From Dictyostelium discoideum (Eukaryota), in NCBI GenBank assembly GCA_000004695.1, contig CM000150.2, positions 1,472,001 through 1,536,000 of the forward strand: 64,000 nt of DNA, given 5' to 3'. The translations under genes and the position numbers were made by a program. The notes beneath the pieces are model-generated. The model saw only the letters and a list, made by a program, of their open reading frames with translations. It was not told the DNA's origin and did not search any database. Below are positions 3,254-40,408 of this stretch, piece by piece. Position 1 is the first letter of the stretch. The number at the start of each line of letters is the position of its first letter.

Positions 3254-6148
<2,895 letters not shown>

Positions 6149-6644
6149 TTTTATCTATCTACATGTGTGTGTTATCTTTTATTACATAATAAAATAAAAA
6201 AATGATGTGAAAAGAAAAAATAAAAAAAAAAAAAAAAAACTAAAATAAAATAAAATGAAATCTGAAAATAAAAAAAAAAAAATAAAAAGGTTATAAATTA
6301 AACGAATTTTTAAAAAAAAAAAAAAATAAAAAAAAAAATTAAAAAATTGCATCATGATTAAAATAAGTTTTTTTTTTTTGTTTTTTTAACACAATCCCAA
6401 ATGTTTTGAAAATGTTGTAATTGAAAATTTTTATATAGGAAAAAGTAAAAAAAATCATTACCAGAGTGTTAATTTTTAATCATTTTTTTATTTTTTTTTT
6501 GGCTGACTACCGCCATTTTTTTTTTTTTTCTCTACTCAAAATTATAAAATTTATTATTAATTTATATTTTTTAAAAATAAAATACAACCAAAATATAATT
6601 ATAAATTTATATTTTATTTTTTTTCTTTAAATTTAAATAAAAAA

Positions 6645-6854
6645 GGGGGTGAGGCGCACTCTCGTAAATCTCTGAAGTTGTGCAATACAGAGCGAATGCG
6701 TAGAGGTCGAATGATGCAAGCACCAAACATATGACCTCACCTCGAAGAAAAATAAGTTTAATCGAATATGCACATCAACGTGTGATGGCAGAAAGAGATT
6801 AAGCTTTTTAGAACAGATACTACACATGATCAAAGCGAGACGCTTCAAGAAGGT
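6645..6854 (-). ncRNA. U2: U2 spliceosomal snRNA gene, copy 1
   Basis: The reverse complement contains GATCATGTGTAGTATCTGTTCT (the U2 branch-point-interaction region GAUCAAGUGUAGUAUCUGUUCU), a Sm-site-like ATTTTTCTTCGAGG, and the 3' domain ACGCATTCGCTCTGTATTGCA...GTGCGCCTCACCCCC, which matches U2 ...ACGCAUCGACCUGGUAUUGCA...GGUGCACCC. It is followed by a T-run. The 5' and 3' ends are estimated by alignment to metazoan U2, give or take about 5 nt. Confidence 0.8.
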
Positions 6855-6908
6855 ACCTTTTCAAAATGAAAAAACTACTCTTTTGTATTTAAATATATAA
6901 TTTTTTAT

Positions 6909-7141: not shown

Positions 7142-7197
7142 AAATAAAAAGTTAATACTTTTAAATAAAAAAAGAAATAATTTCATTTTGAAAAGGT

Positions 7198-7407
7198 ACC
7201 TTCTTGAAGCGTCTCGCTTTGATCATGTGTAGTATCTGTTCTAGAAAGCTTAATCTCTTTCTGCCATCACACGTTGATGTGCATATTCGATTAAACTTAT
7301 TTTTCTTCGAGGTGAGGTCATATGTTTGGTGCTTGCATCATTCGACCTCTACGCATTCGCTCTGTATTGCACAACTTCAGAGATTTACGAGAGTGCGCCT
7401 CACCCCC
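7198..7407 (+). ncRNA. U2: U2 spliceosomal snRNA gene, copy 2, a perfect inverted duplicate of copy 1
   Basis: The same sequence as 6645..6854 lies on the + strand. The inverted repeat spans ~6621-6868 and 7184-7437. The two genes are transcribed divergently from a ~340-bp spacer. Confidence 0.8.
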
Positions 7408-34056: not shown

Positions 34057-34457
34057 AAAATAAAAAAAATAAAATTTAAAAATTAAAGGATTTAGTAAGA
34101 TGATTGAGTTTTTTTTTTGAAATAATTATTATTTTGGTTGGATAATAGTTGCTTCTCTTTTATATACTTTTTTTTTTAATATTGATTATTCAGTGTTTAT
34201 CCATTATAGGAAATAAACAATTATATATATTATTTAATATCTGGATTTTAAAATGTAAAATAGTTTTAATTTTTAAATAACATATAAAACGAAAAATCAG
34301 TTTTCATTTTTAAATCACATATAAAAACATATTATCAATTTATGTATTCAGAATATTATAACCAATATATTTAATTTACATGTTTTGGTTTTTTTTTTTT
34401 TTTTTTTTTTTTTTATTTTTATTATGGAATGTAAAAAAATTGTTGGGAATCGAACCT

Positions 34458-35960
34458 TTTTTTTTTTTTTTTGATATAAATAAACTATTGTAGTATACAA
34501 TTAGTATGTTATTTTTATTTATTTATTTTAGGTTTTTTAATTTTTGTGAATTTAAAATGGTATGTTATTTTAGATTAGGTAATTAATAATTAATTGGTGG
34601 TGTAATTGTTGGAATTGGTTCATTAGTGTTTATGCTCCATTCTTTTTTAAATTTTTTGATTGTTTCGGACCATTGGGTTTCTTTTTGAGTTTTTGTGAGG
34701 TTGTTTTTAATTGAGTATTGGTTAAAGTTTGATAATGTTCTTGAATATTCCAATCTTTTTAGCTTGTGCCATTTTGATTTTAATATATCATAATCTAATG
34801 TTGTGTTGTTTATTTGGTTGTTCCAATTATCAATTGATTGAGTTATATTGATGTCAAATAATGATTTGCATAACCATATCCATATTTGGTGAATAACTAA
34901 TGAGATTATGTTCCAATATGCATGTGTTTTGACTAGATCAAGATTTGTGTTTATATAATTCCAGTTGAACCTGTATTTTTTATATTGTGCATTTTTTGCA
35001 AAATGAAAATTAATATTGATAGTTGGATCTGGTTTAAATGCTTTGTTGTTTATTTGTGGTTTATAAATGAGTGTGTATAATTTTGTTGTTTGGTTTTTTG
35101 TTAGTGACCAGTTTTTGTTTCCATTGCAATTTTTATATATAAAATATTTTAATTTGTCGTGGTTTATGAAGTTGATTGTGTGCTGACAATTGAAAAACAA
35201 ATGACCATAGGGGTCATTATTCATTTCATTTTTGCAAATGGGGCCAACTTTGTTGTGTAGATGATTAATTTGCATTGTATCACGGCCTTTTGGATCTTTT
35301 AATTTTTGAATTTTGACAAATAGTTGGTGGTATGTGTATTTCCATAATAGTTGTATTGATTGTTGGTGCGAAGTAAGAAGTAGATCTGAATATTTCTTGC
35401 CACCTCCGCCCATATTAAATTTAATATGGACACCACATAGTCTTTTGATTTGCATTGGTGATTGTTGAGTATTGTAGAGTAGATTTCTTTGAGTGTTGGT
35501 GGTAGTGAAATATTATTTGTGATTAATGTTTGAGAGGTTTGGTTTTTTATTAATATTGGTTGTAGGGTTTGAACTTTATCTTTTAGATGTCCAATTTGAG
35601 TTGCATAGTTTTCCCATTCTTTTTTAATTTTTATAAGGTATGGAGAAGAGATTGATTTGTTGATTATTTGATCCATCCAACTTATCATGTATATTGAATT
35701 GTTTGCAGATTTATGCATTTGTAAAAATCTGTTGTATATCCAAATCTTTTGAGCAACTTGTCGTAATTGTATATTCCAAAATACCCCAACCACCTTCTTT
35801 TAATGGTTTTAATGATCTATCATAACACATCAAAGGTATTTTTTCACGTGAATGGATGGTTAATGTGTTGTTTTCAATGGAATTGGTATTGAGAGAATTC
35901 ATAAACCATGAGATTAATTTATTAATTTGAATTTCTTCATCTTTTGTAAATTCTTCAAGT
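34458..35960 (-). mobile_element. 5'-truncated non-LTR (TRE3-type, tRNA-gene-targeted) retrotransposon fragment. It carries the ORF2 C-terminal Cys-rich region, the 3' UTR and the poly(A) tail.
   Basis: Minus-strand ORFs in three frames (35711..35902, 35299..35793, 34583..35455) encode a retroelement ORF2 C-terminus with a CKNEMNNDPYGHLFFNCQH cysteine motif. The overlap across frames shows frameshift decay. The 3' UTR is 34474-34582, and T16 at 34458-34473 is the poly(A) on the minus strand. The element lies ~80 bp downstream of the tRNA-Trp at 36042..36128, in the same orientation. It is flanked by the 17-bp direct repeat ttgttgggaatcgaacc (34441-34457 and 35994-36010). Confidence 0.6.
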
Positions 35961-35998
35961 TAGAAATCAAAATAATGTTAAATTGAATAAATTTGTTG

Positions 35999-36009
35999 GG
36001 AATCGAACC
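35999..36009 (-). promoter_or_regulatory. ex-B box (downstream B-box-like GGTTCGATTCC) ~33 bp 3' of the tRNA-Trp gene
   Basis: The minus strand reads ...TCAAAGGTTCGATTCCCAACAA. Dictyostelium tRNA genes commonly carry an external B box in the 3' flank. Confidence 0.5.
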
Positions 36010-36041
36010 TTTGATTTTAGAAAGTCTCTTAAAAAAATGAC

Positions 36042-36128
36042 AGACCCCTCAGGGAGTTGAACCCTGGACCAACTGCTAACTTCTAACGTTTTGGAGACAA
36101 TTACAATAAACCACTATGCTAAGGAGTC
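36042..36128 (-). tRNA. trnW-CCA: tRNA-Trp (anticodon CCA) with a 13-nt intron
   Basis: The reverse complement is GACTCCTTAGCATAGTGGTTTATTGTAATTGTCTCCAAAACGTTAGAAGTTAGCAGTTGGTCCAGGGTTCAACTCCCTGAGGGGTCT. The acceptor pairs GACTCCT with AGGGGTC, with one G-U. The D-loop is AGTGG. The anticodon stem pairs ATTGT with GCAGT, and the loop is C-U-CCA-A-[intron AACGTTAGAAGTT = plus 36078..36090]-A. The T-arm is CAGGG-TTCAACT-CCCTG. The discriminator is T, followed by a T7 terminator. Confidence 0.75.
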
Positions 36129-36400
36129 TTTGAAAATTCACTGGATGAAACACTTTGTTAACACCTCATTTTTTTCGGTGAAACACTATGTTATGGAGTC
36201 ATTAATTTTTATGTCAATAACATGCTGGAATTTAGCTGGCGAAAATTAAAATTGAAAACCAATTGGATGACTCACTTTCCTAAGCCCTCATTTTTTTGGG
36301 TGAAACACTATGTTAAGAAGTCATTACTTTTTATGTCAATAATATGCTGAAATTAAGCTGGCAAATATTAATATTATACCTAGTTATAATAATTACAAAA
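36129..36400 (-). repeat. About 2.3 tandem copies of a ~117-bp module immediately upstream of tRNA-Trp. Each module is the 5'-flank plus a degenerate copy of the first ~20 nt of the tRNA.
   Basis: Repeating blocks (plus strand) read gtgaaacactatgtta(t/a)g(g/a)agtcatta.tttttatgtcaataa(c/t)atgctg(g/a)aatt(t/a)agctggc(g/a)aaa(a/t)attaa.attgaaaaccaattggatga.(a/t)cactttg.taa(c/g).cctcatttttttgg. The subsequence acactatgtta.ggagtc mimics the tRNA 5' end ccactatgctaaggagtc. Confidence 0.55.
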
Positions 36401-36789
36401 AACAAATAGTTTTTTTTTTTAAAAAAAGAGGTATAAAAAAATTATATGGATTAATAATAATAAATTTTTTTGAATAACAATTAAATATTATTATTTTGGC
36501 GAATGCACATCACTTATTGAATTTCTTTTTTTATTTTTTATTTTTTTATATATACCCCATTGTAAAGCTTAATAAAGTAAAAAATATTAAATCCATTTAT
36601 CTAATTAATAGATGAAGTAAAAAAAAATTATATATCGTATAGTGATTTTTTAGTGTTCTATCTATACTAATAAATATTAATAATGAATATTAAAAATAAT
36701 TAAAATTAAATCATTGTTAAAAAAAAAAAAAAAATGAATTTAATCGTTCTGTTTTTTTTTTTTTAATTTTTATTTTCTCCAGCTAAATT

Positions 36790-37040
36790 CCAACATGTTA
36801 ATAGCTTAAAAAAATGAATGTATTAATTCTGTTTTTAGCTGGCAAAAATTAAAATTGAAAACCAACTGGATGGCACACTTTGCTAATGTCTCATTTTTTT
36901 AATTAGTTATCAACCTGAAAATAAACATAGTGGTTTATTGTATTTGTCTCCAAAAATGAGGGCTTAACAAAGTGTGCCATCCAGTTGGTTTTCAATTTTA
37001 ATTTTCGACAGCTAAAAACAGAATTAATACATTCATTTTT
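36790..37040. repeat. Inverted repeat of two ~90-bp module copies (~36805-36900 and 36945-37037). The central spacer holds a plus-oriented tRNA-Trp 5' fragment catagtggtttattgtatttgtctcc.
   Basis: The left arm reads ...gaatgtattaattctgtttttagctggcaaaaattaaaattgaaaaccaactggatggcacactttgctaa... The right arm reads ...ttaacaaagtgtgccatccagttggttttcaattttaattttcgacagctaaaaacagaattaatacattc... The arms are reverse complements of each other. Confidence 0.55.
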
Positions 37041-37431
37041 AATATTAATATTTTAAAATAATTTATTTAAACAAAGAATTAATAAGAGAAACAAAGAACA
37101 AAATAACAAAAAACAAAAATCTACAAAGAGTCAATTGATCAAAATAAGAGAAATGAGATTATTAATATTTTTTATAGTATTAAAATTAAATATATATAAA
37201 AAATAAAAAAAAAATTAACACTTTTTTTTCAAAATATCACAAATATATTTTTTTTTTTTTATGACTTCACACAAAAAAAAAGTAATTTTAAAAAAAAAGA
37301 ATTTTTTTCTTTTTTTTTTTTTTTTTTTTATTTTCTTCTAATTAATCCTCATATAAAATTAACACAAAAAAAAAAAACAACGACAACTTCACCTTTTTTT
37401 TATTTTATTATTCATCTAAAAAGATAAAAGA

Positions 37432-38298
37432 ATGTCAAAATTAGTCTCACAGTGGTTAAATGAATCATTCAAAGTTATCAGAAAGAGTCAAGTAATAAAA
37501 TATAAAGTACACTTAAAAAATGTAGACGATAGCATTAAAGAATATTTTGAAAAACCAGACACATTAATAAGAGTCAAAAAAGGTATGGTATTATTAACAG
37601 AAAATCTTGACTCAGTAAAATTTGCATCCTCTTGCTTTGACGAAGTGGAAGTGGAAAATTCAACAAAGATTAGTTTCCCATTAAAATTGAAACAACTGGA
37701 ATCTTTAGATTATTTGGATGCGATGCCTGAAGAACTCTCATCAAAGGTAGTCGAACGTCGAACATTTCCAAAAGAGATATCTTTCACCTTTGTTAATCTT
37801 GATGAGAAATGGGACACACATCAATTAACAAAGACTATAGAAAATCTTGATTTTCCCAAAAAAAAACTCCTACAAACCTATTACGCTCAGCATGAGCAAG
37901 AGCAAGAGCAAGAGCAAGAGCAAGAGCAAGAGCAAGAGCAAGAGCAAGAGCAAGAGCAAGAGCAACAGCAACAATTTATCCCCAGAACTAATAACTATGA
38001 AGATTTCAAAATATTACAAAAAAAACTAAGTAGACAGAAAATACAACAACAAATGATCAAAAAGGAAATCAAAAGAAGCTTCAAAAAAAACAAAAACAAA
38101 AATAACAACAACGACCACAAAAAGAACAAATTCGACAACAACGACCACAACAAGAACAAATTCGACAACAAATTCGACAACAACAAGATGAAAAAGAGTG
38201 ACAAGACGATAAAGAGGAAAAACAACACAAAAACAACACCAACCACAAGAACAACACAAACTACAAGAACAACACCAACAAAAAAAACACAAGAATAA
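37432..38298 (+). CDS. Hypothetical protein of 288 aa with a (GAGCAA)n-encoded (EQ)n tract and a K/N-rich C-terminus
   Basis: A single ORF runs from the ATG at 37432. The unique N-terminal ~140 aa (MSKLVSQWLNESFKVIRKSQVIKYKVHLKNVDDSIKEYFEKPDTLIRVKKGMVLLTENLDSVKF...) has no recognisable domain. Confidence 0.45.
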   Translation: MSKLVSQWLNESFKVIRKSQVIKYKVHLKNVDDSIKEYFEKPDTLIRVKKGMVLLTENLDSVKFASSCFDEVEVENSTKISFPLKLKQLESLDYLDAMPEELSSKVVERRTFPKEISFTFVNLDEKWDTHQLTKTIENLDFPKKKLLQTYYAQHEQEQEQEQEQEQEQEQEQEQEQEQQQQFIPRTNNYEDFKILQKKLSRQKIQQQMIKKEIKRSFKKNKNKNNNNDHKKNKFDNNDHNKNKFDNKFDNNKMKKSDKTIKRKNNTKTTPTTRTTQTTRTTPTKKTQE

Positions 38299-39350
38299 CA
38301 AGAAAAACAAGAAAAGTAGCATGAACAACAACCACAGCAACATGTAAATTAAAAAATAGCAAAACAAAATATTAGTAACTTTTTATAATATTAAAATGAA
38401 TAAAATCTGAATGTATGGTTTGAAATCTTATTTATATAAACTCTCAAGTAAATTTTTTAAAAAAAAAATACCAGAAAGGCAGAGGAAAACGAATAAAACT
38501 TTGGAGGTTAGGTTTTTTTTTTTTAAATATAAAATCAGAAGTAATTGTGATGGTAAAGATAATAAATCATTTGTTCAAAATATTCACATTATTAAGTTTT
38601 ATTTGATCTATTAAAACTATTTATCATTAATATTTTATTAAGCAATAATTATAAAAAAACAATCTTTTTTGATTTAAATATAGGTGAGAATTCTCATTTT
38701 ATCAAGTGGTTTTATATATGTTTTTTTATAAGATTAAATAATTAAATAATAAAATTATGAAATTAATTTTTTTTTTTTTTTTTTTTTTCAGCACATTGAC
38801 CCACGAAGGCTGAGTTTGAACAACAGAGGTCTTTTAAATTTTAATCTTGTTGGATTTTTTTTTTTTTTTAATATTGAATAATAAGTGTTTATCCATTAAA
38901 GCAAATAAACAATAACTAATAGTTTTAGTTATTCATTTTCTTTAATTTTAATATTCAAATAAGGAATTTTAATAGTGTAGTAACTAATTTTTATTATTAT
39001 TATTATTAATATTGTTATCTTTTTTTAAAATATCGAGTTTTTAGATATGTTAAATATTAAATAAATTAATTTAATAAATCAAATAATATGATTATAATTG
39101 ATTAGATGAAATGGTATGATTTGGAAGAATCAGTTGATTCTTGCAAGTTAATTATCTTAATAATAGTATTTGTTTAAGGAAATCGTTTGGGTCTTTAAAA
39201 TTGTTCTGATCTTTTGAAAGAGTTAATTTACATGTTTTTTTTTTTTTTTTTATATATAAATATATATTCTGGAAATCAAATTAATGTTAAATTGAATAAA
39301 TTTGTTGGGAATCGAACCTTTGATTTTAGAAAGTTTCTTAAAAAAATGAC

Positions 39351-39437
39351 AGACCCCTCAGGGAGTTGAACCCTGGACCAACTGCTAACTTCTAACGTTT
39401 TGGAGACAATTACAATAAACCACTATGCTAAGGAGTC
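39351..39437 (-). tRNA. trnW-CCA: tRNA-Trp (CCA), second copy, identical 87-nt gene with a 13-nt intron (39387..39399)
   Basis: It is identical in sequence to 36042..36128. It has the same 3' flank TGTCATTTTTTTAAGA(G/A)ACTTTCTAAAATCAAAGGTTCGATTCCCAACAAATTTATTCAATTTAACATTA. The ex-B box is at 39308..39318. Confidence 0.75.
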
Positions 39438-39904
39438 CTTGAAAAATCAATTGGATGAAACACTTTGCTAAGGCCTCAATTTTATTGGAAAACCCAAATT
39501 AATCAGAAAATTTCCAGATTTTTAACTTTTTAAAGTAAAATAAAAAATAGAAAGAAAATAAGATGAAAATTACAAACAACACCACAAATATTAAGCAACA
39601 CAAATGCCTACAAAAAATAAGCGAAATTGTGGATAAAACTCAAATAAAAAAAACAATTCAAATATGTCATCAACATCAATCACGAACCAGACGATAAAAT
39701 AAAAAAAGATTTAGAAAAAGTTTGGACAAAAAAGATGTTTAATCAAAAGTAATAATACAATTCAAAATTTGAAACAAAAAAAAAAAAAAAAAAAAAAAAA
39801 AAGTTAACTAACCCCTCTTTTAGAGACCCTGTAAAAAACTACAAATAAAATGAGATCAAGCAGGAGAAGCAACTAATAATTGCGTTATCCAATTCAAAAA
39901 AAAA

Positions 39905-40090
39905 AAAAAAAAAAAAGCCTCATTTTTTTGGAAACAAATACAATTACAATAAACCACTATGCTAAGGAGTCCTTGAAAACCAACTGGATGACACACTTTG
40001 CCAAGGTCTCATTTTTTGGGGTGAAACACTGTGCCAAGGAGTCATTACTTTTTATGTCAATAACATGCTGGAATCTAGCTGGCGAAAAAT
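39905..40090 (-). repeat. Module repeat plus a truncated tRNA-Trp 5' fragment (32 nt at 39940..39971), an orphan piece of the tRNA-Trp upstream repeat
   Basis: acaattacaataaaccactatgctaaggagtc is the reverse complement of the first 32 nt of tRNA-Trp. It is followed by the module cttgaaaaccaactggatgacacactttgccaaggtctcattttttggggtgaaacactgtgccaaggagtcattactttttatgtcaataacatgctggaatctagctggcgaaaaat. Confidence 0.55.
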
Positions 40091-40121
40091 AAAAAATAAA
40101 AAAAAACAGAATGATTACTTT

Positions 40122-40158
<37 letters not shown>

Positions 40159-40408
40159 CAAGGATTTAATTTTAATTATTTTTAATATTTATTAGTATAG
40201 ATAGAATACTAAAAAAATAATCAATATGATACAGAATTTTTTTTATTTTTTTGATGTCAAATTTGACGATGTTTTAATCACAAAAAATATCTTTTGAAAA
40301 AAAAAAAAAAAATCTTTTTTTTTTTTTTATTTTTTACTCACCAATTTTCTTTTTTTTTTATTTATAAATAATTTTTATAAACAAAAAAAAAAAAAAAAAG
40401 AAAAAGAA

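Follow-up and report, generated by a model that had tools for sequence, protein, structure and literature searches.

Results

Two identical tRNA-Trp genes with an intron

The DNA analysed is a 64,000-nucleotide stretch of Dictyostelium discoideum contig CM000150.2 (GenBank assembly GCA_000004695.1, positions 1,472,001 to 1,536,000), here called the window, and the subject of this study is a pair of intron-containing tRNA-Trp(CCA) genes within it, termed copy 1 and copy 2 (Table 1). The window has a G+C content of ~22%, and its open reading frames (ORFs) match D. discoideum proteins at 94-100%, including that of the AX4 gene DDB_G0268440. Gene calls were made with two independent tRNA finders, ARAGORN and the Rfam tRNA covariance model. 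Over the whole 64 kb ARAGORN reports exactly two tRNA genes, both tRNA-Trp(cca) on the minus strand (spans 36041-36129 and 39350-39438), and Rfam RF00005 matches 36042-36128 and 39351-39437, each at 44.8 bits against a gathering score of 29 (E=2.8e-6); the alignment places a 14-nt insert in the anticodon loop. The two genes are identical at 87/87 nt and form a direct repeat, 3.3 kb apart, with a small protein-coding gene between them. A first-pass annotation, made from the letters of the sequence, had proposed such a gene at copy 1, folded as a cloverleaf with anticodon CCA and a 13-nt intron after position 37, together with an identical 87-nt gene at copy 2; both finders return its coordinates exactly, the dissection given below agrees with its fold and intron, and the strand, which it left unstated, is minus for both genes.

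Read 5' to 3' on the minus strand, with the intron in square brackets, the gene divides into GACTCCT/TA/GCAT/AGTGGTTTA/TTGT/A/ATTGT/CTCCAA/[AACGTTAGAAGTT]/A/GCAGT/TGGTC/CAGGG/TTCAACT/CCCTG/AGGGGTC/T, i.e. an acceptor stem of 7 bp, a D stem of 3 bp plus a U13:U22 mismatch, an anticodon stem of 5 bp including two G:U pairs, the anticodon CCA, a variable loop of 5 nt and a T stem of 5 bp within a standard T arm. The A box, TAGCATAGTGG, occupies tRNA positions 8-18 and fits the consensus TRGCNNAGTGG, and the B box, GGTTCAACTCC, at 36063-36053 in copy 1, fits GGTTCRANNCC. Both genes are followed by a T7 run, the predicted RNA polymerase III terminator; the corresponding oligo-T run in the tRNA-Trp genes of relatives ranges from T4 to T7.

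A permissive Rfam scan of 34100-40400 gave nothing beyond the two tRNAs and a sub-threshold mir-5014 hairpin (33 bits vs 101) on a palindrome described below, a match that is treated as chance. Metagenome scans with tRNA-Trp patterns returned no match, and neither did an exact look-up of a 52-residue ORF that spans copy 1 or look-ups of two AX4 proteins.

Table 1. Positions in the window of the tRNA-Trp genes, their signals and the repeats and elements around them (strand: - minus, + plus,. not stranded)
Feature	Position	Strand	Basis and remarks
tRNA-Trp(CCA) copy 1	36042..36128	-	ARAGORN, Rfam, manual dissection
Copy 1, parts	5' exon 36128-36091; anticodon 36094-36092; intron 36090-36078; 3' exon 36077-36042	-	last base is discriminator T73
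tRNA-Trp(CCA) copy 2	39351..39437	-	ARAGORN, Rfam; identical to copy 1; intron 39399-39387
T7 run, predicted terminator, copy 1	36031..36037	-	+5 to +11 after gene; read from sequence
T7 run, predicted terminator, copy 2	39340-39346	-	+5 to +11 after gene; read from sequence
ex-B box GGTTCGATTCC, copy 1	35999..36009	-	motif scan; 33 nt past gene, 54 nt past internal B box
ex-B box GGTTCGATTCC, copy 2	39308..39318	-	motif scan; 33 nt past gene
Third GGTTCGATTCC box	34446..34456	-	motif scan; abuts poly(A) tail of TRE3-type fragment
Duplication core, locus 1	35963..36140	-	repeat search; proximal 3' flank, gene and 12 nt of 5' flank
Duplication core, locus 2	39272..39449	-	repeat search; partner of 35963-36140
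Distal 3'-flank homology island, locus 1	34168..34234	.	partner 38860-38926, 84% over 67 nt
Distal 3'-flank homology island, locus 2	38860..38926	.	partner 34168-34234, 84%
TRE3-type non-LTR fragment, 5'-truncated	34457..35962	-	1.5 kb, (A)16 tail; same orientation as tRNA
TRE5-A-type fragment, 5'-truncated	39491..39917	+	B-module-like 39491-39803 plus A-run; C-module-like 39804-39917 plus A-run
Two tandem ~122-bp units upstream of copy 1	36130..36375 (36253-36130, 36375-36252)	-	each S1-S2-S3
tRNA-Trp 5' fragment and unit	39940..40122	-	fragment 39971-39940 is positions 1-32, 100%; unit 40122-39973 homologous to locus 1 unit
Palindrome of two inverted unit copies, 231 bp	36810..37040	.	arms 36810-36898 and 36952-37040, 93% complementary

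Conservation of the exons and the intron

The gene was compared among 11 copies from 5 taxa, taken from D. discoideum (four assemblies and the window), D. cf. discoideum, D. citrinum and D. firmibasis. The exons do not differ among the 11 copies (74/74 positions identical), the 3 variable sites are all intronic, and the flanks diverge directly past T73. Since the exon positions are frozen while the variable sites are confined to the intron and divergence sets in at once after T73, the exons appear to be under purifying selection.

The intron, AACGTTAGAAGTT, comprises 13 nt between A37 and A38, the canonical 37/38 site; its placement can slide by 1-2 nt owing to an A-run, which leaves the mature sequence unaffected. 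Canonical tRNA introns lie between positions 37 and 38, and eukaryotic examples range from 6 to 133 nt (PMC4090602), a range within which the present intron falls. Three intron variants occur among the 11 copies, i.e. AACGTTAGAAGTT, AAAGTTAGAAGTT in the second copy of D. cf. discoideum, and AACGTTAGAAGCA in D. firmibasis and D. citrinum. In eukaryotes the splicing endonuclease makes use of an anticodon-intron pair, in which position 32 is paired with the intron base that precedes the 3' splice site by 3 nt. In the Dictyostelium genes C32 is able to pair with an intron G at that site, G(-3), which is invariant, whereas intron positions -1, -2 and 3 vary, -1 and -2 being the two would-be bulge bases; the AU-rich folding energies single out no such pair.

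Extent of the duplicated block

The core of the duplication, 35963-36140 against 39272-39449, aligns ungapped over 178 nt at 98% identity. Identity is unevenly distributed about it: the proximal 3' flanks of copies 1 and 2 agree at 77/79 nt, and the first 50 nt of the 5' flanks at 82%. The 5' half of copy 1 with its upstream unit (36097-36279) is 85% identical over 183 nt to the fragment and unit upstream of copy 2 (39940-40122). Further out, on the 3' side, the best 45-mer shared by the distal islands matches at 40 positions; 200 Markov resamples gave 30.8 matches on average and at most 34.

These results bear out the first-pass annotation, which had described ~50 bp of common 3' flank carrying an ex-B box, a ttacatg(T)n motif at both loci, a 45-bp distal motif and a duplicated block of at least ~0.7 kb. 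The shared flank with its ex-B box is real, though its length was underestimated, the true extent being that of the 77/79 match; the ttacatg(T)n motif recurs in the same order at ~34375 and ~39227, the distal motif stands well clear of the resampled maximum, and the block is somewhat larger than proposed, extending at locus 2 from ~38860 to 40122. It appears discontinuous because of two insertions, 34457-35962 at copy 1 and 39491-39917 at copy 2.

Neutral parts of the block are ~76-85% identical. The duplication is thus unlikely to be recent, and the close agreement of the two copies in the gene and the proximal 3' flank is better ascribed to gene conversion and selection.

Orthologous loci in related assemblies

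Orthologous loci were taken from other assemblies by way of neighbouring genes. A single tRNA-Trp gene lies between the VPS13-like and GH162 genes in both D. firmibasis (L004) and D. citrinum (L009), and no tRNA-Trp gene is present at the locus in D. purpureum (L005). Two further D. discoideum assemblies (L003 and L007) and D. cf. discoideum (L008) each have two tRNA-Trp genes flanking the same small gene, the second one in L008 being found by BLAST only, with 1 intron mismatch. Once the retroelements are subtracted, the distance from copy 1 to the VPS13-like gene is 480 bp and that from copy 2 to the GH162 gene is 524 bp; for the single D. firmibasis gene the corresponding distances are 496 and 544 bp. 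The matching outer distances are the geometry expected of one ancestral gene duplicated with its flanks. The duplication therefore arose after D. firmibasis and D. citrinum had split off, and it is common to the D. discoideum complex.

Within lineages the paralogues are more alike than the orthologues are between them. Over +1 to +50 of the 3' flank, the two copies agree at 49/50 positions in the window and 48/51 in L003, compared with 44-45/53 across lineages, and the homogenised tract reaches +79 in the window and about +47 in L003. The paralogues of a lineage share proximal 3'-flank substitutions, hence the case for gene conversion; the sequences are most simply read as the outcome of a single old duplication, with gene conversion afterwards in each lineage.

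The gene enclosed by the two copies corresponds to an ORF at 37432-38298 (+) that encodes a low-complexity product of 288 residues, in which Pfam identified no domain. Its relatives are of 288-318 residues in the D. discoideum assemblies, with a homologous region, unchecked, in L008; it is absent at the locus from D. firmibasis and D. citrinum. It appeared there together with the duplication. In L003 a ~1.07-kb element with 33-bp terminal inverted repeats (gattgttattctcattattaagagataaaagct...) lies upstream of copy 1, at ~5471-6536; it is confined to this D. discoideum lineage and looks like a non-autonomous DNA transposon.

External B boxes

Each copy is followed by an external B box (ex-B box, GGTTCGATTCC). 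Its spacing from the internal B box is 51-54 nt in all copies from the D. discoideum complex and D. citrinum. For D. discoideum, 66% of tRNA genes are reported to have an ex-B box downstream, at about 41 bp (PMC3159450), a distance somewhat greater than the 33 nt found here.

The third box of this sequence, beside the tail of the TRE3-type fragment, lies 48 nt past the ex-B box of copy 1 once that insert is removed, giving a series of three B boxes at spacings of 54 and 48 nt (34446-34456, 35999-36009 and 36053-36063). In copy 1 of L008 (~1530-1655, minus) the first two 51-nt units, each comprising B box, gene 3' end and trailer, differ at one base, and the L008 ex-B box is visibly a tandem duplicate of the 3' end of the gene. 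This suggests that in the tRNA-Trp family ex-B boxes are what remains of partial tandem duplications involving the tRNA 3' end, and the 54/48-nt series would then account for the extra box at 34446-34456; that box may alternatively be part of an unusually long target-site duplication. A tandem-duplication origin of the kind seen in L008 was not found stated in the Winckler laboratory papers (PMC3159450, PMC5006619). Descent of the third box from the TRE3-type element itself was considered and rejected, a related copy in L001 ending in ...TTTATTTATATC(A)n followed by unrelated DNA that carries no such box.

Retrotransposon fragments beside the genes

The fragment downstream of copy 1 is assigned to the TRE3 type on the basis of its position, its poly(A) tail and its reverse transcriptase (RT)-bearing relatives; the assignment does not extend to the subfamily level. 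Its 5' end lies ~80-87 bp downstream of copy 1, compared with about 100 bp reported for TRE3 (PMC5006619). Pfam identified no domain in its ORFs; they match a multi-copy D. discoideum family, two homologues in which have an RT domain (PF00078). The fragment is absent at the locus in L003, L007 and L008. It is 91% identical to L001 4680-6221, itself 129 bp downstream of a tRNA-Val gene. These two TRE3-type copies, at window 35955-35962 and L001 4680, begin at the same internal position (CTTGAAGAATTTACAAAAG...), and the common start point beside different tRNA genes suggests a defined truncated subfamily instead of random 5' truncation.

The fragment upstream of copy 2 lies 54 bp from its +1, with the 5' end toward the tRNA gene and the poly(A) tail distal, and is enclosed by direct repeats of ~13-20 bp (39471-39491 and 39918-39938). 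It has a longer paralogue with an ORF2 tail in L002, shows the same module order in L008, and occurs in L007 as well. TRE5-A elements insert about 50 bp upstream of tRNA genes, with the 5' end facing the tRNA 5' end, and their 3' layout comprises ORF2, a B-module of 290 bp that holds the ORF1 start, and a C-module of 134-137 bp (PMC3159450). The position and orientation found here agree with those published by the Winckler laboratory. The parts of the present elements are an ORF2 C-terminus (el1), 286 bp with an ATG-initiated short ORF (el2) and ~110-125 bp (el3). Their attribution to TRE5-A, which rests on module size, content and position and not on alignment to a reference element, is thus a probable one. 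Pfam identified no domain in a 371-residue ORF of L008.

Partial tRNA-Trp copies and repeat units

The surroundings of both genes hold partial tRNA-Trp copies within a family of repeat units, S1-S2-S3, that occurs upstream of both genes and nowhere else in the window. S1 is of ~51 nt; S2 is a decayed 5' piece of tRNA-Trp that begins exactly at +1 and ends in '...CC' followed by an A-run; S3, of ~46 nt, adjoins the 5' side of both intact genes and is revealed by comparison with L003 as a decayed 5'-half copy. Two pieces are better preserved, that at 39971-39940 (Table 1) and a plus-strand fragment of tRNA-Trp positions 11-40 at the centre of the palindrome (36926-36955). Further 5'-half repeat units occur at L003 5319-5395 and at L008 2180-2335 and 7340-8483. 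A 70-residue ORF spanning a repeat unit gave no match in a homology search.

In L008 five more tRNA-Trp fragments end at position 41 or 46. Because these ends lie inside the intron, the fragments are copies of gene DNA or pre-tRNA, not of spliced halves. A derivation of the upstream pieces ending in '...CCAA' plus an A-run as retro-copies of spliced 5'-exon halves was likewise set aside, the L008 equivalents running 3 or 8 nt into the intron. The A-rich 5' leader and the AAAA at the anticodon/intron junction could offer a microhomology route to tandem duplication at the DNA level.

A strain in which copy 1 is interrupted

In one further D. discoideum assembly (L002, GCA_054883475.1), identical to the window at 100% over 5980 nt and at 99.68% over 10.2 kb, copy 1 is split, with tRNA positions 87→37 and 16→1 separated by 701 bp. 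Positions 17-36 (window 36093-36112) are missing, and the insert, L002 5981-6681, falls between window 36092 and 36113. Its three parts, an ORF2 tail, a B-module and a C-module, stand in an order that is found in D. cf. discoideum as well. The first part supplies the C-terminal end of a long ORF, with a CX2C...HX4C motif and a stop codon before an A-run; the second, of 286 bp, contains the start of a short ORF. L002 is thus the window state plus a single 5'-truncated TRE5-A-type insertion, accompanied by a 20-bp target deletion.

An earlier interpretation of this insert and of the 427-bp block upstream of copy 2 as, respectively, three and two nested poly(A) fragments, with scenarios that required several events or an assembly collapse, was abandoned: D. 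cf. discoideum shows the order too, el1, with a CCHC knuckle, is the C-terminal end of a long ORF, and the sizes and content of el2 and el3 agree with those published for the TRE5-A B- and C-modules.

The ex-B box is 84-104 bp downstream of the L002 junctions, and the TRE5-A-type fragment at locus 2 lies 119 bp upstream of the B box. TRE5-A normally inserts 108-127 bp upstream of a B box, and isolated B boxes suffice as targets (PMC3159450). It may be that the L002 insertion was directed by the ex-B box and hence landed inside the gene.

L002 differs from the window also at the palindrome centre, where 9 substitutions occur in ~80 nt (window 36887-36967, L002 7456-7536), many kb of the remaining sequence being identical in the two assemblies. 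In L002 the sequence is nearer the repeat-unit consensus, and the tRNA fragment reaches position 7; the cluster could reflect gene conversion, or a sequencing error in one of the assemblies.

Another small-RNA gene pair

Elsewhere in the window lie two U2 spliceosomal small nuclear RNA genes, 6649-6856 (-) and 7196-7403 (+), scoring 91 and 95 bits. They are arranged head to head, ~340 bp apart, and constitute a further duplicated small-RNA gene pair.

Discussion

Function and origin of the pair

The overall evidence makes it very probable that the locus holds two functional nuclear tRNA-Trp(CCA) genes of D. discoideum, which arose by local duplication of one ancestral gene and were later hit by TRE elements. 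We infer that RNA polymerase III would transcribe each copy from the internal A and B boxes, that the downstream ex-B box would serve as a TFIIIC site, and that the transcript would end at the T7 run, 4 nt past the gene. The intron at 37/38 would be cut out by the tRNA splicing endonuclease and a tRNA ligase, with the C32:G(-3) pair positioning the 3' cut. As to history, one gene and ~0.3-0.7 kb of flank on either side would have been duplicated locally in the ancestor of the D. discoideum complex; selection and gene conversion may since have held the gene and its proximal 3' flank identical, while the remaining block diverged and was struck by tRNA-targeted retrotransposons, TRE3-type downstream of copy 1 and TRE5-A upstream of copy 2.

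Several observations weigh against this interpretation. In L002 ARAGORN calls copy 2 only, such that the claim of two genes fails in that strain. The minimum-energy fold of the gene is not a cloverleaf (-19.8 vs -17.9 kcal/mol); such minima are, however, common for AT-rich tRNAs, and this one is outweighed by the covariance-model score. Others concern tRNA-Trp identity: the discriminator is U73 (T in 11/11 copies) where the published identity set has A73, and pair 5:68 is C:G in place of the minor determinant U5:G68. The atypical discriminator, with the crowding of the surroundings by tRNA-Trp fragments and repeat units, might be taken to mean that both copies are themselves tRNA-derived repeats or pseudogenes, e.g. 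SINE-like elements or relics. This is very hard to reconcile with the full-length copies keeping every exon position over five taxa while flanks and fragments decay, with the intact A box, B box, terminator and ex-B box, and with an Rfam score far over the gathering threshold; the fragments, by contrast, carry substitutions and deletions, and we regard the possibility that neither is a working gene as negligible.

The L002 structure also raises the question of whether copy 1 of the window is an assembly artefact, the true locus being that of L002 with a repeat collapsed in the reference. L002 is near-identical elsewhere, yet has 701 extra bases and no counterpart of window 36093-36112, and the substitution cluster in the palindromic repeat shows that repeat regions differ between these assemblies. 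A collapse would, however, need an overlap of just 16 nt on the 5' side, copy 1 has unique flanks of its own on both sides, and the whole difference is accounted for by the single strain-specific retrotransposition with its 20-bp deletion, by an element described as keeping an active population. Since one insertion explains L002, and copy 1 is intact in L003, L007 and L008, copy 1 of the window is considered genuine and ancestral, and an artefact improbable. A comparably small probability attaches to the two copies having arisen by independent duplications in each lineage, in place of one old duplication followed by gene conversion. The greater likeness of the proximal 3' flank among paralogues of one genome than among orthologues would be expected on that account as well. 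Yet the copies of the window, L003, L007 and L008 flank an orthologous small gene with the same order, orientation and outer genes, a TRE5-A fragment with B- and C-modules occupies the same site, 54 bp upstream of copy 2, in the window and L007, and the divergence of the neutral parts of the block bespeaks an old duplication. One ancestral duplication, with conversion thereafter, thus remains by far the better account.

Comparison with known systems

All the features of the locus have already been published for D. discoideum or for eukaryotes, i.e. tRNA introns, identical gene pairs, ex-B boxes and TRE neighbours. Peffley and Sogin (Biochemistry, 1981) reportedly cloned a putative D. discoideum tRNATrp gene with a short intervening sequence by the anticodon and repetitive DNA nearby. 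According to the summary in PMC5372738 of Eichinger et al. (2005), the 390 tRNA genes of the D. discoideum genome include 41 groups with two or three identical members; going by that summary, the present pair is of the same kind (same organism, same anticodon, 100% identical, a few kb apart) and has no essential difference from those published, what is added here being the age of the pair and the evidence for gene conversion. The tRNA-Trp(CCA) genes of Saccharomyces cerevisiae are similar in isoacceptor, in the 37/38 intron and in the presence of multiple identical copies; in yeast there are six, all with the canonical intron, which is dispensable (PMC4090602).

The tRNA-Trp locus itself is of small importance, being of textbook type and part of a model genome that is already fully annotated. 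It is of use as a clean and well-dated example, single-copy in D. firmibasis and D. citrinum and two-copy in the D. discoideum complex, of frozen exons and of a proximal flank homogenised separately per lineage. Two items may be of interest to specialists, i.e. the TRE5-A knockout of copy 1 in L002 at near-normal B-box spacing from the ex-B box, and the U73 discriminator.

The discriminator and tRNA-Trp identity

The acceptor end is the sole feature of the locus that departs from the literature. The anticodon (C34, C35, A36) and the first pair, G1:C72, are as in the tRNA-Trp identity set. T73, the base after C72 on the minus strand (window 36042 and 39351), is the same in L003, L004, L007, L008 and L009, and is invariant in the 11 copies while the bases just after it differ between taxa; position -1 is occupied by A, G or T, and the one-base-longer stem that ARAGORN occasionally draws is therefore not conserved. 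No paper on tRNA-Trp identity in Dictyostelium was found in a literature search. Yeast tRNA-Trp has the discriminator A73, and in this differs from that of Dictyostelium.

A73 and U5:G68 both belong to published eukaryotic tRNA-Trp identity sets, and both are reported to be conserved among eukaryotes and archaea. For A73, structural and biochemical work extends this to every tRNA-Trp of these two domains and makes the base the major determinant in human, plant and archaeal systems (PMC1538984, PMC9976931). It is possible, though rather less than an even chance, that dictyostelid cytoplasmic tRNA-Trp uses U73 and C5:G68, a lineage-specific shift in the rules of tRNA-Trp identity. If the genes described here are the Trp decoders of the cell, the Dictyostelium tryptophanyl-tRNA synthetase must read the acceptor end in a manner unlike that of the human, plant and archaeal enzymes.

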